Source: Dictyostelium discoideum (Eukaryota). From it: a stretch of 64,000 nt of DNA. Of this stretch, positions 862 through 36,877 are shown piece after piece. Each line of letters begins with the position of its first letter. Position 1 is the first letter of the stretch. The notes under the pieces were generated by a model. It worked only from the letters and a program-made list of their open reading frames with translations, was not told the origin of the DNA and ran no database searches. Position numbers and translations under genes: made by a program. The DNA lies in contig CM000153.2 in the NCBI GenBank assembly GCA_000004695.1, positions 3,392,001-3,456,000 of the forward strand, written 5' to 3'.

Positions 862-1140
862 TTTTAAAATTTTAATAGTTTCTTGTTTAAAAATTAGAGT
901 TTGATTTAATATTTTTTTTTTCTAATTTGGTTACAATTTATAGTTTTTTTTTTCTGAAAAAAAGAATAAAAAAACAAATAATTTTTTAATTTTATTTTTA
1001 AAATCATACTTTTTGTTTTTTCATTTCTATTTTTTTTTATATCAAAAAACTTAAACTCCCCCCCATTATATTTTTCTATTTGACTTGTTATATTATTTAT
1101 TCATAAATGATTACTTGTTATATTAATTATTATTATAAAT

Positions 1141-2707: not shown

Positions 2708-2771
2708 GGGGGGGGGGGGGGGGGGCCTTTGGATTTTGAATTATCAAGAATTCTTAAAATAAAAAAGTCTT
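2708..2771. repeat. G18 homopolymer (2708-2725) fused to the second copy of the 50-bp element (2722-2771)
   Basis: 18 consecutive G, extremely atypical for this genome, immediately followed by CCTTTGGATTTTGAATTATCAAGAATTCTTAAAATAAAAAAGTCTT and poly(A). Confidence 0.6.
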
Positions 2772-31689: not shown

Positions 31690-31724
<35 letters not shown>

Positions 31725-31739
31725 ATCACCTTTAAAAAA

Positions 31740-33574
31740 ATGTTGAAACTTTTAAAACAAATTTCAACAACCTCAACTTTTAAAAAACCATCATCAATAA
31801 ATAATGGATTTATTAATATAAATTTATTTAAAAATTATTGTACATCAGTTAAACAAGAAGATAAAAAAAAAGTATTAATTACAACACCAATCTTTTATGT
31901 AAACGGCCCACCACATATTGGTCATTTATATTCAGCATTACTTGGAGATGCATTAGGTAGATGGAATAGATTTATTGGAAATGATACATTGTAATATTTA
32001 TCACTCACACACACACTCAATCACTCACTCAGACACACAAACACAATTATTATAATAATTAATAATTAATAATTAATATATTAATTAAATTTAATAGATT
32101 TATGACAGGTACAGATGAACATGGTAGTAAAGTTGATGAAGCAGCAAAAAAGAATGGATTAAAAACAATTGATTATTGTGATAAAATTTCAAATAGATTT
32201 AGAGAGTTATTTGATAAAGCAGATATAAAATATGATGATTTCATTAGAACCACTGAACCAAGACATAAAGAAGCAGTTACTGCAATATGGAATCGATTAC
32301 TTGAACGTGGATATATATATAAAGGTGTTTATAAAGGATGGTATTGTACATCTGATGAATCATTTTTAACAGATGATCAAGTTACAGAAGGAATGTCGCC
32401 AATTACACCACAGAATCCAATTAGTAAGAAATGTATGATAAGTTTAGAGTCTGGACATGAAGTAAACTGGATTGAAGAGGAAAATTATATGTTTAAATTA
32501 TCAGAGTTTTCAAAAACCATTGAAAATTGGTTTGAAGAGGTTAAACCAATTTTCCCAGCAATTCACGTCAATTTATTACGTTATATGTTAAGCCAAGGCA
32601 TTAAAGATCTTTCAATATCAAGACCATCATCTAGAATCCCCTGGGGTATAGAAGTACCAAATGACCCATCACAAACCATTTACGTTTGGTTAGATGCTTT
32701 AACAAACTATTTAACAGTTACAGGCTACCCAAATGTATCACCAAATTCATCACAATCGCATTGGTCCAATGCAACTCACATCATTGGTAAAGATATTATA
32801 AAATTTCATTCAGTATATTGGCCAAGCTTTTTAATAGCAGCAGATTACCCACTTCCAAAATCAATTATATGTCATGCCCATTGGACTGTAAATCGTGAGA
32901 AAATGTCAAAATCTCGTGGAAATGTAGTTGACCCATTCTTGGCTATTGATAATCACGGTTTGGAATTAATCCGTTATTTCCTCTTGAAAGGCGGTGGTTT
33001 AGAGAATGATGGTGATTGGTCAGAACATGAATTGGCAGTTCGTTTTAAATCGGATTTAGCCGACACCTATGGTAACCTAATCTCAAGATGCACTGGTAAA
33101 GCATTGAATCCATCTGGTGAGTGGCCAAAATCAGTCACTGACACCTCACTATTCACAATGGATGATCAAAAATTAATTGAAAATTCTTCAATCCTAGTTA
33201 AATCAGTTTCGACACATTATGATCGTGGTGATTTCAAAAGTGGTATTTTCGAAATTATGACATTCCTCTACGAATGTAATCTCTACGTTCAAAATCAAGC
33301 ACCATGGAAATTAGTACCAAAACCAAATCGTGTTGGTTCTGACCTCATTAGATTAAATACCATCATCTATATTGCAATTGAAATGATTCGTATCACTTCA
33401 TTACTCTTATCACCAATTATACCAACTTCTTCAAATTTAACTTTAAATTATTTATCAATTCCATTAGAAAATAGATCAAATCCTTCAAATTTTAAATTTG
33501 GTTATAATTATCATCAAAATCAAAATAATTTAAAATTACCAAAAGAAATTTTAATTTTATTTCATAAAAAATAA
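31740..33574 (+). CDS. Methionyl-tRNA synthetase, mitochondrial-type (class I aaRS); 2 exons: join(31740..31990, 32098..33574), ~575 aa
   Basis: N-terminal presequence-like [20 protein letters not shown] motif as [27 protein letters not shown] donor at 31991, acceptor aatag at 32096-32097 (phase 2). Exon 2 has TGTDEHG and the KMSKS motif ([14 protein letters not shown]). Its short length and lack of C-terminal extension fit an organellar MetRS. Confidence 0.8.
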
Positions 33575-33658
33575 ATAAATAAATAAATAATAATTTTTTA
33601 TTTTTTTTATTTTAATATTTTTTTTTTATTTTTATATTTTTTTTTATTTTATTTTATT

Positions 33659-34687
33659 TTATTCTTTCTTTTCATTTGATTTACCATTTTCAATATCACC
33701 ATCAACAGAATTAAAATAATCTAAATTTAATTGATTTAATTCATCATCAGGTACAGCGATAACACCTGTAACTTCACTTATCCAATGCATTAACATTCTT
33801 TCAATACCACCTTTTAATGTTGCTTGACTTGATGAACATGATGAACATGTACCTTGTAATTGTACCATAACAATACCATCTTTAAAACCCATATATTTAA
33901 TATTACCACCATCTTCTAAAACTGTTGGTCTAATTCTAGTTTCAATTAATTCTTTAATCATTGCTACAACTTCATCATCTTCTGGTAATATCATTGTATC
34001 TGCATTAATATTACCTAATGATGGATCTGATAAAATTGGTAATCCTGAATGATAAAAATCAATAATTGTACCATAAATTTCTTTTTTTTTATTAAAATAA
34101 ATAAAAAAGTATTAGTAATTTCATTCATTCAATAACAATAATAATATATTTAATATAAACTTACGAGGTTTTAAAATTGACCATTCATGTTCAGGATATT
34201 TATTTACTGAAATGAAATCAGAACTAAAGAAAACTCTATTAACACCATCCAATTTAAATAAATTATTAGCTAATGGTGATTGTTGTGATGTTTTAAAATC
34301 ACTGAAATCTATAATTTGACCTTCTTCTAAAACTTGAACACCTGGTATAAACTTTAAACTATCTGGATTTGGTGTTGTTTCTGTTTGAATGAAAATACTA
34401 TTATTCTTTTTAGTTTCACCTTCATCTTCTGACTTTTTAAAAAAATCATCTATTAAATCTTTTGGTTTACTTTCATTATTATTATTATTATTATTTGTTG
34501 TACAATAAAATCTATTATTATTATTTATGTTATTATATATAGTTTTTTGTGTATTATTATTATTATTATTTTCATTGAAAAACGATTTACTTGTTAAACA
34601 TTTCATATTATTTGAACCTCTATTAAAAGTTGATAATGATAATGAATTTATTCTTTTAACATTATTTCTTAATTGATTAATTATCAT
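33659..34687 (-). CDS. NFU1 iron-sulfur cluster scaffold protein (mitochondrial); 2 exons: join(34687..34156, 34080..33659), ~317 aa
   Basis: Exon 1 gives the Nfu N-terminal domain ([24 protein letters not shown] ... EHEWSILKP), then GTAAGT (rc acttac 34150-34155). Acceptor aaaaag is rc of ct at 34081-34082; the phase-1 junction gives [18 protein letters not shown], as in human NFU1. Exon 2 has the NifU C-terminal domain with the CxxC motif ([23 protein letters not shown]). Confidence 0.8.
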
Positions 34688-35764
34688 TTTATTCTATATA
34701 TATATATATAATGTATGTATGAATTTGTGTTTTATATTTTTTTTTTTTTTTTTTTTTTTCTAAAAATTAATGAAAAAAAAAATCTGTTTTTCGTTTGCTT
34801 TTGATTTTTTTTTCTTTTTTTTAAAATAAAAACACCAAAAAATAAAAAAAAAATAAAAAAAAAATAAAATTAAATTTTAATTAATTAATTAAAATTTTCT
34901 AAAAAAGAACGAAAAAAAATAATTTTCTAAATTGGAATTCATTATTTTATTTTTATTTTTTTTTTATTTCTATTTTTATTTTAAAAAATATACTATTTAG
35001 ATAAACAAAAAAAAAAAAAATAAAATCAAAAAAAAAAAAAAAAAAAAAAAAGGATTTGGGAAATTTAATATACCATAAATAACATTTTTCTATTAAAACT
35101 TTAAAAAAAAAATTTATACAATTGTAGAAGTTGAATTAAAAAATCTGTGGGTATCTGAATACTTTATTTTAAATTTAGTTCCAATAGAGCAAATCCGATT
35201 CCCTAGAAAAACTTTAACATATGGTTTAAATCCTGACCAGAGTTTCCACTTAAGTTGGTTCTCCATTGTTTTACATTTTTCTGAAAATTAAAAAAAATTA
35301 AATTAAAAAAAAAAAAAATTCTTGTTTCTTTAAATATTAAATTTCATGAACACATAAAAAATAATAAAAATACTAAACTACCATTCCTTAAGAATTTGGT
35401 CTCACAAATAATAAATTAATTAATTTTTTAATTTCTTATTTATTTTTTTAATATTTTAAAATTAATAATAATAAATTTTTTTAAAATTCTTTTTTTTTTG
35501 TCTTAGTGTAATAAAATTGGGTGTATTTAAAATATGACATCAGATATTTTTTTTTTCCAAACATAAACTTTTTTAAGACAAAAAAAAAAAAAAAATTAAA
35601 GAATCAAAAGAAGCATCATTCTTAAAAAATCTAAAAAAAAAACCGAGTGGTCATTTTTTTTTTTTTTTTTTTTTTTTGTTTAAATTTTATTTTAATTACT
35701 TTTTTTTTTTTTTTTTTTTTTTTTCATTGATAAATAAACAAATTAATAAATTAATAAATATTAA

Positions 35765-36337
35765 ATGGATATTAAAGAAATTGTTGGTGATTATAATTCA
35801 TTTTTAGATACAATTTTTGAATTATTAATTAAAGGTGGTTTTAAAGAGAATGAATTAAAAGAATTACCAATTGATCATATTTGTTATAGAGTTAGTACAA
35901 ATGAATTTTATAATGAAAAAAAGGAACAGTTAAATCAATTGGGTGAATTATTAGTTGAGACTGAAATTGGTGGTAGAATGATTTCAACCTTTAAATTGAA
36001 TAAACCAATTCAATATAAGGATAAATCAATACCATTAATCGAATTACCAGCACCAAAAAAGAATAGAATCAACTATGACGGTTTAGAACACATTGAAATG
36101 GTTATCAATGAACCATTCCAATCATTTGTTGATAATCATCCATCACCAATTGATGAAAATTTAAAATTCAATTGGGTATTACACGCTTTAAACAAAGATA
36201 TCAATCCTGACGTAGAATGTGAATTCATAGATCCACGTATTAAAAATGAAATTAGAACTATCAGTGTTAAATTTCATCATCAATCATTAGAAGAAGTTGT
36301 AAAATATGAAATACAATTATTAAAAGAAAATAAATAA
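35765..36337 (+). CDS. YecM-like protein (bacterial-type predicted metal-binding enzyme, VOC/glyoxalase fold)
   Basis: 190-aa single exon. Matches the E. coli YecM pattern: DHICYRVSTNEFYNEKKEQLNQLGELLVETEIGGRMISTFKL (YecM: DHISLRCHQN...GELLSENMINGRPICLFKL), DGLEHIEMVINEP (YecM EGWEHIEIVLPGD), IRTISVKFHHQSLEEVVKYE (YecM TTIKFHPWSIEEIVASE). Codon usage is fully host-like. A C11 homopolymer follows the stop (36360-36371). Confidence 0.6.
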   Translation: MDIKEIVGDYNSFLDTIFELLIKGGFKENELKELPIDHICYRVSTNEFYNEKKEQLNQLGELLVETEIGGRMISTFKLNKPIQYKDKSIPLIELPAPKKNRINYDGLEHIEMVINEPFQSFVDNHPSPIDENLKFNWVLHALNKDINPDVECEFIDPRIKNEIRTISVKFHHQSLEEVVKYEIQLLKENK

Positions 36338-36529
36338 AATTTAAAAAATTCACACACATACCCCCCCCCCCACAACTCAAAATAAAATTATTTCTTTTTT
36401 CTATTTTTTTATTTTTACAAATTAATCAATTTAATGATAATAAAATAAAATAATAGTATTTTAAAAATAAAATAGCTTTTTTTTATATATTATAACGTCT
36501 TTTATTTAAAAAATAATAATAAAAAGTGC

Positions 36530-36638
36530 TTAACGGAGTCTACGAGCTTCACGTTCAGTTTCCTATAGTGTATTGTATTTTTTTATAAAAATTAATGATA
36601 TGGTCAGTAAGAAATTGAAAAAATAAACTTTTTATGAA

Positions 36639-36685
<47 letters not shown>

Positions 36686-36877
36686 AAAACTTACGAGTAA
36701 ACATAAGATATCGTCTTTTCTGACTGGACCTTTAACGTTTCTTAATAAAGTTCTTTCTTTACCTTGGGCAGTACCTAAAAACTCAACACGGACTTGAGTG
36801 ACGGCACCACGGGAACCAGTACGGCAGAGTACTTCGGTAACTTTGGCTAATTGAACGGTTTCAGTAGCAGCTGTGTT
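36530..36877 (-). CDS. rps28: 40S ribosomal protein S28 (eS28), exons 2-3 resolved: join(36877..36695, 36562..36530). The short first exon with the ATG was not located
   Basis: rc translation [61 protein letters not shown], then GTAAGT (rc acttac 36689-36694) and acceptor tatag, then [10 protein letters not shown]. This matches the eS28 core ...[21 protein letters not shown]...[27 protein letters not shown]. Strongly C/G-ending codons are typical of highly expressed genes. The upstream acceptor tttag (rc 36878-36879) implies a further 5' exon. Confidence 0.7.

Follow-up and report, generated by a model that had tools for sequence, protein, structure and literature searches.

The closest described relatives of the gene reported here are bacterial YecM proteins. 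The YecM protein of E. coli, for which a structure is available (PDB 1k4n), is a small, single-domain protein. Shorter bacterial forms of 160-176 aa are annotated as 'VOC family protein' or 'predicted metalloenzyme YecM'. Many bacterial members are fused to DUF4269, Peptidase_M15/VanY, HAD or CYTH. Across 60 long bacterial forms, DUF4269 is by far the commoner fusion partner (32 proteins), and Peptidase_M15 or VanY is found in six, including one from a member of the Bacteriovoracaceae. Enzymes of the vicinal-oxygen-chelate (VOC) superfamily coordinate their metal through His and Glu side chains of paired beta-alpha-beta-beta-beta modules. Public databases already contain the D. discoideum protein and its domain, so the gene has been catalogued before. 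A preliminary description of the locus regarded it as a bacterial-type YecM gene whose product aligns with enterobacterial YecM, belonging to an essentially bacterial family and possibly acquired by ancient horizontal transfer.

The locus

The window analysed here is a 64,000-nucleotide stretch of Dictyostelium discoideum DNA with a GC content of 22%. The gene and its surroundings comprise the following features.

31722..33574, plus strand: methionyl-tRNA synthetase (MetRS), upstream host gene with an intron (ORFs; Pfam labels in the locus of another strain, L084, and in that of P. violaceum, L079)
33659..34687, minus strand: Nfu/NifU, upstream host gene (ORFs; Pfam labels in L084 and P. violaceum L079)
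35765..36337, plus strand: intronless CDS of the YecM family and VOC fold, 190 codons plus TAA, product XP_638147.1 (Q54MZ6) (ORF list)
35876..35878, plus strand: His38 codon (DHICYR motif, first beta-strand), candidate metal ligand (invariant in alignments A1, A2 and A6)
36089..36097, plus strand: His109-Ile110-Glu111 codons (EHIE motif), with His109 and Glu111 as candidate metal ligands (invariant in A1, A2 and A6)
36230..36256, plus strand: residues 156-164 (DPRIKNEIR), shortened remnant of a dictyostelid-specific loop insertion (alignments)
36275..36277, plus strand: His171 codon (KFH motif, last beta-strand), candidate metal ligand (invariant in A1, A2 and A6)
36361..36371, no strand: C11 homopolymer, a length-variable simple repeat in the 3' flank, 23 nt past the stop codon
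36877..36695 and 36562..36530 (36530..36877), minus strand: rps28, downstream host gene, two exons seen (sequence reading)

The ORF begins with ATG, ends with TAA and encodes a 190-aa product identical to XP_638147.1/Q54MZ6 of strain AX4 (P0040). Because the single ORF yields the RefSeq protein exactly, the gene has no intron, in agreement with its first description; the end given there, 36371, is the last C of the downstream C-run rather than the end of the gene, whose CDS stops at 36337. The A/T-biased, host-like codon usage described earlier was also confirmed: GC3 is 0.141, compared to 0.147 +/- 0.038 for 24 long ORFs of the window, and the GC content of the gene is 25%.

Both flanks consist of AT-rich intergenic DNA typical of Dictyostelium, and the neighbours are genes for MetRS, NifU, rps28, a mitochondrial carrier and Cdc20. 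Between the rps28 exons lies an intron with many A and TA runs, and the conceptual peptide scores 102.4 bits against Pfam Ribosomal_S28e. The YecM gene sits at this locus in separately assembled genomes of two D. discoideum strains, in two assemblies for D. citrinum, and also in P. violaceum, where the order MetRS–NifU–YecM is likewise found. Apart from the bacterial type of the family, nothing favours bacterial contamination or an assembly artefact over a true amoeba gene, and this reading is refuted by the host composition of the gene, by the Dictyostelium-like DNA and eukaryotic genes on both sides, and by the presence of the locus in independent assemblies of two species and in P. violaceum. 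Comparison of the D. discoideum and D. citrinum genes gave a dN/dS of 0.11-0.15; the gene is under purifying selection and functional.

The C11 homopolymer had been singled out as unusual, and base composition alone would predict only about 5e-6 runs of this kind in a window of 22% GC. Its rarity, together with its position 23 nt after the stop codon, might suggest a functional element, such as a signal at the 3' end or for regulation, or else a remnant of transfer. However, the run is not conserved: in another D. discoideum strain (L084) it is a C7 preceded by a CA repeat, and in both D. citrinum assemblies it is replaced by a T-run within flanks that can still be aligned. The window also holds further G/C homopolymers (G18 at 2708..2725 and C7 at 1058..1064). 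A functional role is therefore extremely improbable, and the behaviour of the run fits that of a slippage-prone simple repeat.

Family, fold and subfamily

A search of the Pfam models confirmed the YecM family: PF06185 matches residues 4-182 of the protein over positions 3-180 of its 180-position profile (E 3e-45, 154.6 bits; gathering threshold 25 bits). The lengthwise alignment to E. coli YecM claimed earlier also holds, with residues 3-182 aligned to 14-189 of 1k4n (E 7e-14). The AF2 model of the protein has a pLDDT of 94.8, and its best fold match in the PDB is again 1k4n (TM 0.71-0.73, E 8.8e-12); methylmalonyl-CoA epimerase, HPPD and glyoxalase rank next. Family and fold assignment are thus solid. 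Of the motifs quoted in the preliminary description, DHICYRV, EHIEMV and the C-terminal block VKFHHQSLEEVV are present, but the amoeba protein has GGR (EIGGRMISTFKL) where NGR was given, the latter being the E. coli form.

Residues invariant across the eukaryotic and bacterial members are D37, H38, R42, Y49, E65, G70, R71, H109, E111, N147, F170 and H171; among these, H38, H109, E111 and H171 are invariant in each of the three alignments A1, A2 and A6 (17-60 members). His38 is a candidate metal ligand because of the VOC fold.

An enterobacterial affiliation of the protein was not borne out. All six NCBIfam equivalog models for PRK11700 (NF008678-NF008683) gave 48-76 bits against cut-offs of 201-391, and whichever of the tested dictyostelid proteins served as query, E. 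coli YecM came at rank 423-431 of 431 relatives. Enterobacterial YecM therefore represents the wrong subfamily for comparison. The best labelled matches, at 40-47% identity, come from Bacteriovoracaceae/Bdellovibrionota, Saprospiraceae/Flavobacteriales, Sericytochromatia and CPR bacteria, and the gene contexts of the labelled bacterial matches are bacterial. With each of the dictyostelid proteins tested, more than 80 sequences, mostly of prokaryotic type, score above any labelled sequence from chytrids or marine protists. Judged by its sequence, the D. discoideum protein belongs to the short-form YecM subfamily.

Distribution of the family

An exhaustive search for YecM relatives returned 927 representative clusters at E<=1e-3. 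Among the listed relatives, those with a named source or a checked gene context are mostly prokaryotic, so the earlier view of an essentially bacterial family stands in part; it has to be modified because the gene also occurs in five chytrid genera, in a marine-protist clade (MMETSP/EukProt) and in two further eukaryotic sequences (P0054/P0198 and P0091), as well as in Dictyostelia. These eukaryotic occurrences are found in genuine eukaryotic settings. In Phlyctochytrium, YecM adjoins Vps5 on a 1.28-Mb scaffold; one of the two further sequences is a YecM–PA28 fusion with spliceosomal-type introns, read by manual splicing of GC-rich DNA (L085); a Rho/Rac gene neighbours another eukaryotic YecM locus; and YecM is carried by MMETSP and EukProt transcripts. 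Neither a spliced leader nor another marker was found in the eukaryotic sequence L081, and the proteins retrieved include no annotated, spliced version of the PA28 fusion. Animals, plants and Dikarya were absent from the listed matches, where the only eukaryotes named are dictyostelids and chytrids, and no named amoebozoan outside the dictyostelids was seen there. Searches for viral relatives, by sequence in IMG/VR and by structure in BFVD, found none. A plasmid vector was considered and rejected: the plasmid matches are enterobacterial yecM only, at about 30% identity, in mostly very large and probably chromosomal records.

Within Dictyostelia, the gene is present in at least eight named species (D. 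discoideum, D. citrinum, D. firmibasis, D. dimigraforme, D. purpureum, T. lacteum, C. fasciculata and P. violaceum) belonging to the genera Dictyostelium, Cavenderia, Tieghemostelium and Polysphondylium. At the site of the loop insertion, of which D. discoideum retains the shortened remnant, D. purpureum, T. lacteum, C. fasciculata, P. violaceum and the EukProt sequence P0309 have the pattern 'L[TS]xQDKLxxxxP...RT' in common; in the bacterial short forms, one or two residues occupy this site. Because at least eight dictyostelid species have the gene, and given the shared insertion, the synteny, the host-like GC3 and the dN/dS of 0.11-0.15, any transfer would predate crown Dictyostelia. This bears out the earlier suggestion that a transfer, if there was one, must be old; the MetRS–NifU–YecM order in P. 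violaceum is part of the case.

Phylogeny and origin

Trees were built by three distance methods (NJ) with 100-391 taxa and about 160 columns. Dictyostelia were monophyletic with 81%, 87% and 89% support, and each eukaryotic group alone received 25-89%. In contrast, bootstrap support was 0% for monophyly of all eukaryotes, 0% for Dictyostelia with chytrids, 2% for Dictyostelia with the P0054/P0198–P0091 pair and 6% for Dictyostelia with the marine clade. Of the 89 bootstrap trees with monophyletic Dictyostelia, 54 gave them a sister group made up entirely of bacteria and nine one made up entirely of eukaryotes. In the best tree, the sister group comprises two CPR MAGs and one gammaproteobacterial MAG, a placement that may be a long-branch artefact. 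Any specific clade joining Dictyostelia to other sequences had 0-1% support. With such backbone support, from distance methods and about 160 columns, nesting of Dictyostelia in a particular bacterial clade is not demonstrated. The phylogeny called for at the outset thus sets Dictyostelia apart as a group from other eukaryotes, but its deep nodes, nearly devoid of support, name no donor and do not formally exclude an older eukaryotic presence.

Such a presence would mean that an early eukaryote or early amoebozoan already had a YecM gene, whatever its first source, and that vertical descent preserved it in Dictyostelia, chytrids, part of the marine protists and a few further groups while all the rest lost it, without any lineage-specific transfer. 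The occurrence of YecM in at least five separate eukaryotic lineages, in the eukaryotic contexts described above, speaks for this history, as does the finding that P0054/P0198 and P0091 score among the best relatives for five of six dictyostelid proteins compared; the backbone is also too weak for eukaryote monophyly to be formally rejected. However, the eukaryotic groupings gained 0-6% where the single groups gained 25-89%. The alignment has no signature column uniting Dictyostelia with other eukaryotes, and loop insertions at the same site in different eukaryotic groups are not homologous. Given also the very many independent losses that would be needed, with animals, plants and Dikarya missing from the listed matches, we consider this history rather unlikely. 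Should P0054/P0198 or P0091 turn out to be amoebozoan, the acquisition would have to be dated before Dictyostelia, or the gene would have been inherited vertically.

The same two top-scoring sequences could instead point to transfer between eukaryotes, from a chytrid-like or protist donor that had itself been supplied by bacteria, and the YecM gene or YecM-coding part is free of introns in all three eukaryotic genomic loci read. Yet their high scores may merely mirror short branches, and Dictyostelia do not group with the pair (2%), the chytrids (0%) or the marine clade (6%). Moreover, the YecM part of the PA28 fusion is closest to P0091 (54.5%), followed by Sericytochromatia, a Nanoarchaeota MAG and other sequences at 45-50% identity, and its top 15 matches include no dictyostelid. 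Transfer between eukaryotes is therefore quite improbable.

We infer that a bacterium was most likely the source of the gene and that the dictyostelid stem lineage acquired it ahead of the crown radiation, in an event that would be independent of the YecM genes of chytrids and marine protists. After the transfer, it would have taken on the base composition of its host and gained the lineage-specific loop insertion. As a whole, we consider it probable that this is a functional, vertically inherited short-form YecM gene encoding a metal-dependent enzyme and transferred from a bacterium before crown Dictyostelia. The original proposal of an ancient horizontal transfer is supported in part, with respect to family, integration, amelioration and age, but it has to do without supported nesting in a bacterial donor clade and without a family confined to bacteria. 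[quoted passage not shown] The case is plausibly an ordinary instance of ancient transfer that opens no long-standing question.

Proposed function

The product is a small, vertically inherited dictyostelid protein of the YecM family and VOC fold, and is predicted to be cytosolic since it has no obvious N-terminal targeting sequence. A divalent metal would most likely be bound through His38, His109, Glu111 and His171, and possibly Glu65, in the cleft of the curved beta-sheet, and the reaction on a small-molecule substrate might be that of an isomerase, epimerase or lyase; both metal binding and type of catalysis are predictions. The database name 'dihydroxybiphenyl dioxygenase domain-containing protein' is a superfamily label that carries no evidence of dioxygenase activity and overstates what is known of the protein. 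Among Pfam models, only YecM matches it at E<=1, and none for dioxygenases or glyoxalases does. Our literature searches found neither a publication tying YecM (PF06185, DUF991, 1k4n) or Q54MZ6/XP_638147 to Dictyostelium or to a function, nor expression data for the D. discoideum gene. No conserved bacterial operon context was found that might serve as a functional clue; recurrent neighbouring genes for a DEAD-box helicase, RF3 and an RlmL-like methyltransferase were considered as a functional linkage and rejected, as they look like Bacteriovoracaceae synteny. The patchy spread of the family among eukaryotes (Dictyostelia, chytrids, marine protists and the YecM–PA28 fusion) could be used for working out its function.

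Because predatory and epibiotic lineages dominate the nearest labelled carriers, and because YecM is fused to Peptidase_M15/VanY in some bacteria, short-form YecM can be imagined as half of a module, typical of organisms living on other bacteria, that processes cell-wall material of the prey (D-Ala-D-Ala) or detoxifies compounds made by it. Bacteria-eating dictyostelids might have taken it over from a bacterium of this kind, perhaps along with a Peptidase_M15 dipeptidase. We regard this as a very doubtful speculation. The taxon list of the nearest labelled carriers is biased by the search pattern used, DUF4269 far outnumbers Peptidase_M15/VanY among the fusion partners, the bacterial neighbourhoods showed no conserved operon, and chytrids, which carry YecM too, do not eat bacteria. 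A prey-processing module would suit Bacteriovoracaceae, Bdellovibrio-like groups, Micavibrio, Saprospiraceae and CPR epibionts. A Peptidase_M15 dipeptidase is already among the Dictyostelium candidates for horizontal transfer listed by Eichinger et al. (2005), as quoted in bioRxiv 10.64898/2026.03.01.708701.

Comparison with known systems

Earlier bacterial-type candidate domains for horizontal transfer in D. discoideum (Eichinger et al. 2005, to the extent quoted in the same preprint) resemble the present gene in that they too belong to mostly bacterial families, are ameliorated and lie in ordinary amoeba genome.

Compared to E. coli YecM, the amoeba protein has the same Pfam family and fold, is likewise small and single-domain, and shares the equivalents of H38, H109, E111 and H171 (DH, EHIE and KFH), which are kept in the pairwise alignment. 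The two differ in that identity is only about 27-30% and in that the amoeba protein, as a member of the short-form subfamily, has two additional loops. VOC enzymes (methylmalonyl-CoA epimerase, glyoxalase I, HPPD and extradiol dioxygenases) show a remote likeness in fold, with Foldseek E values of 1e-4 to 1e-3 and TM scores of 0.35-0.45 normalised to the query, the range for HPPD and glyoxalase being 0.24-0.45; they are likely mechanistic analogues of the amoeba protein, although no Pfam glyoxalase or dioxygenase model matches it at E<=1. The nearest counterparts are the bacterial short forms, which align over the full length and have the same invariant residues as the amoeba protein but lack the dictyostelid loop insertion. 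Unlike the many bacterial YecM domains that are fused to other domains, the amoeba protein is a stand-alone domain.

The YecM-family gene and its 3' flank

The AT-rich window (22.5% GC) carries three features around the gene:

35765..36337, forward strand: YecM-family coding sequence, one unbroken open reading frame of 190 codons from ATG to TAA
36361..36371: C11 homopolymer, read from the sequence, 23 nt 3' of the stop codon
36530..36877, reverse strand: rps28 (ribosomal protein S28e; Pfam, 102.4 bits), convergent with the YecM-family gene

The product matches D. discoideum AX4 XP_638147.1 (EAL64635.1; UniProt Q54MZ6, named 'dihydroxybiphenyl dioxygenase domain-containing protein') at 100% identity. 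The two agree residue for residue, so the window is of strain AX4 and the gene is one that had already been annotated; it is without introns, as the preliminary description stated. The span of 35765-36371 proposed there has the correct start, but the coding sequence stops at 36337, and 36371 is the last C of C11. The protein is length polymorphic among D. discoideum strains (proteins P0001 and P0040-P0044). The AX4 form, of 190 aa, ends in ...LLKENK* (window 36310..36337); other strains have forms of 191-194 aa, and the 194-aa form (P0001; L084 5540..5585, from a second strain) ends in ...LLNENKQNK* and has an additional Asn within SPINDENL.

The C11 run, singled out earlier as unusual, is indeed highly improbable by base composition, but it is not conserved: its counterpart is C7 after a CA repeat in another D. 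discoideum strain and a T-run in D. citrinum, where sequence farther downstream still aligns well. Other G/C homopolymers occur in the window (G18 at 2708..2725 and C7 at 1058..1064). We read C11 as a putative slippage-prone simple repeat of the 3' flank. In neighboring rps28, of which two exons were recognized, the intervening intron (36563..36694) is nearly all A-runs and TA repeats; the gene was missed by the gene caller in the second D. discoideum strain (L084) and in D. citrinum (L082, L083).

The product belongs to the YecM family but not to its enterobacterial subfamily

The sole match in a Pfam search was PF06185 YecM (154.6 bits, E 3e-45, profile positions 3-180 of 180); no glyoxalase or dioxygenase model was matched. 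E. coli YecM (1k4n) is the only solved structure related by sequence (E 7e-14), aligning over residues 3-182 versus 14-189, in agreement with the lengthwise alignment claimed initially. All of the YecM motifs quoted at that stage are found, except that GGR replaces the NGR of E. coli. Residues D37, H38, R42, Y49, E65, G70, R71, E93, P95, P97, H109, E111, N147, F170, and H171 are invariant in eukaryotic and bacterial members. An AlphaFold2 model built from a 17-sequence alignment (mean pLDDT 94.8, pTM 0.89) has 1k4n as its top PDB match (E 8.8e-12, TM 0.71/0.73), followed at far lower similarity by methylmalonyl-CoA epimerases, HPPDs, and glyoxalases. The predicted fold is vicinal-oxygen-chelate (VOC), and the 'dihydroxybiphenyl dioxygenase' name is, judging from sequence, a superfamily label only.

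The resemblance to enterobacterial YecM did not hold at finer resolution. All six NCBIfam PRK11700 equivalog models, which are based on gammaproteobacterial YecM, scored 48-76 bits, below their cut-offs of 201-391; plasmid-database matches were enterobacterial yecM at ~30% identity; and E. coli YecM ranked 423rd-431st when six dictyostelid queries were compared by BLAST with ~430 family members. Comparison with enterobacterial YecM leads to the right family but the wrong subfamily. The closest matches are 'short-form' proteins of 160-176 aa, with 40-47% identity over the full length. A GTDB species-genome scan, in which the choice of peptide pattern skews the set of taxa, found short forms in Bacteriovoracaceae, Bacteriovorax, Halobacteriovorax, other Bdellovibrionota, and Oligoflexia, as well as in Saprospiraceae, Flavobacteriales, other Bacteroidota, Sericytochromatia, several CPR phyla, Micavibrio, and a few Pseudomonadota. 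Two of the best matches were inspected, and both lie in ordinary bacterial gene neighborhoods.

An old and constrained host gene

The gene's GC3 of 0.141 is typical of the window (0.147 +/- 0.038 for 24 long ORFs), bearing out the A/T-biased host codon usage noted before. Its neighbors are eukaryotic: methionyl-tRNA synthetase (MetRS) and Nfu/NifU lie upstream, and downstream come rps28, a mitochondrial carrier with EF hands, and Cdc20. The locus recurs in another D. discoideum strain and in two D. citrinum assemblies, and Polysphondylium violaceum keeps the order MetRS(+), NifU(-), YecM(+). Compared with window 31722..36337, an HSP70-like gene adjoins YecM in D. citrinum (L082, L083) instead of MetRS-NifU; since the more distant P. 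violaceum has the MetRS-NifU-YecM order, this implies that the region was rearranged locally on the way to D. citrinum.

Orthologs are present in D. citrinum, D. firmibasis, D. dimigraforme (93%), D. purpureum (58%), Tieghemostelium lacteum (52%), Cavenderia fasciculata (49%), P. violaceum (46%), and a EukProt sequence (49%). A loop insertion, L[TS]xQDKLxxxxP...RT, is common to the last five and lies ahead of the final strand; D. discoideum and D. citrinum retain a shortened version of it, DPRIKNEIR. The dN/dS between the latter two species, 0.11-0.15, indicates purifying selection. The YecM-family gene thus genuinely belongs to the host, is old, and is functional. If, as is generally held, the deepest dictyostelid split separates Cavenderia from Dictyostelium, the gene is older than the dictyostelid crown group, for which published age estimates are several hundred million years. 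Together with the host-like GC3, this distribution agrees with the earlier view that any transfer would be old.

Other eukaryotes carry YecM

The family had been described as essentially bacterial. It is mostly so, but it also occurs in chytrids, a marine-protist clade, and two further eukaryotes. The chytrid carriers are Clydaea vesicula, Lobulomyces angularis, Phlyctochytrium arcticum, Geranomyces (two proteins), and Gorgonomyces haynaldii; in Phlyctochytrium the gene has no introns and lies near a Vps5 gene on a 1.28-Mb scaffold. The marine-protist clade comprises MMETSP/EukProt transcripts and related metatranscriptome proteins (P0077, P0118, P0176, P0311, P0313, P0316, P0320, P0321, P0330, and P0343; locus L081). 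Several members have additions of a eukaryotic kind: an N-terminal hydrophobic segment, probably transmembrane, together with a weak DUF1653-like region, or else ankyrin repeats (P0311) or an MsrB/SelR domain (P0343). P0176 has GLDFVGF instead of the EHxE motif and may be catalytically dead.

In a 60%-GC eukaryote (L085 2238..~3700; L086, L087), the YecM frame runs without a stop, in frame, into proteasome activator PA28, as seen in three independent Logan assemblies. Removal of four GT..AG introns (50-63 nt) yields a 408-aa YecM-linker-PA28 protein (YecM 115, PA28_N 21.1, and PA28_C 193.6 bits). We are not aware of any earlier description of a VOC-fold enzyme fused to an 11S proteasome activator. 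In a 43%-GC eukaryote (L088 2367..2966, encoding P0091; L089), the YecM gene adjoins that of a CAAX-terminated Rho/Rac GTPase. The PA28-fused YecM and P0091 are reciprocal closest relatives (54.5% identity), and both fall within the top five matches of all but one of the six dictyostelid queries.

Phylogeny and the transfer question

Neighbor-joining trees were built from HMM-aligned match columns (~160) with 100-200 bootstraps per run, using Kimura, Scoredist, and ML distances, the last from a Gonnet-derived rate matrix with gamma rates. Dictyostelia were monophyletic at 65% with five species and at 81%, 87%, and 89% with seven. The marine-protist clade received 79%, the pair of PA28-fusion YecM and P0091 61-76%, and the chytrids together 25%. 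Of the 89 replicates in which Dictyostelia were monophyletic, 54 gave them a sister group of bacteria only, 26 a mixed one, and 9 one of eukaryotes only. Deeper nodes all had negligible support, and these trees name no donor.

A less likely but possible alternative to a dictyostelid-specific transfer, given the weakness of the deeper nodes, is that YecM in eukaryotes stems from an older presence. No replicates grouped all eukaryotes (0%), and Dictyostelia joined the chytrids in 0%, the PA28-fusion/P0091 pair in 2%, and the marine clade in 6%. Screening of alignment columns found no state common to Dictyostelia and other eukaryotes against bacteria. Ancient horizontal gene transfer (HGT) into dictyostelids, as first proposed, is thus plausible and partly supported: the family is mostly bacterial, and the dictyostelid genes form a single ameliorated clade with no affinity to other eukaryotic carriers. 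The proposal is weakened by a eukaryotic distribution patchier than was assumed and by a tree backbone without support. As for viral vectors, neither viral contigs nor predicted viral structures yielded any relatives. The HGT-candidate domain list of the D. discoideum genome paper (Eichinger et al. 2005), as far as it is quoted in a 2026 D. giganteum preprint (bioRxiv 10.64898/2026.03.01.708701), includes Peptidase_M15 and does not include YecM. Public databases already contain both the gene and its domain, and a further candidate ancient HGT is unsurprising for Dictyostelium.

Putative function and comparison with known systems

The invariant His, Glu, Arg, and Tyr set is located on the cleft-forming strands of the YecM/VOC fold. 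By analogy with the VOC superfamily, His and Glu ligands would hold a divalent metal that activates a small-molecule substrate. We have a weak preference for isomerase-, epimerase-, or lyase-type chemistry rather than that of a dioxygenase, because methylmalonyl-CoA epimerase is the nearest structural analogue after YecM. No N-terminal targeting sequence is obvious by eye, and a cytosolic location is therefore assumed.

Among 60 long bacterial forms scanned, the fused domains were DUF4269 (32), Peptidase_M15 (D-Ala-D-Ala dipeptidase; 5), HAD phosphatase (5), CYTH (5), and VanY (1), with single fusions to NUDIX, GNAT, metallophosphatase, ABM, and pseudouridine synthase domains. These partners point to small-molecule metabolism but to no single pathway, and no conserved operon partner was found among 75 prokaryotic loci. 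Peptidase_M15, being both a fusion partner and a Dictyostelium HGT candidate on the list as quoted, offers a lead toward co-transfer.

The amoeba protein shares family and fold with E. coli YecM but differs from it in subfamily, at ~27-30% identity. Its bacterial short-form relatives, at 160-176 aa compared with 190 aa, lack the dictyostelid loop insertion. Apart from YecM, its nearest structural analogue is methylmalonyl-CoA epimerase, at much lower similarity.
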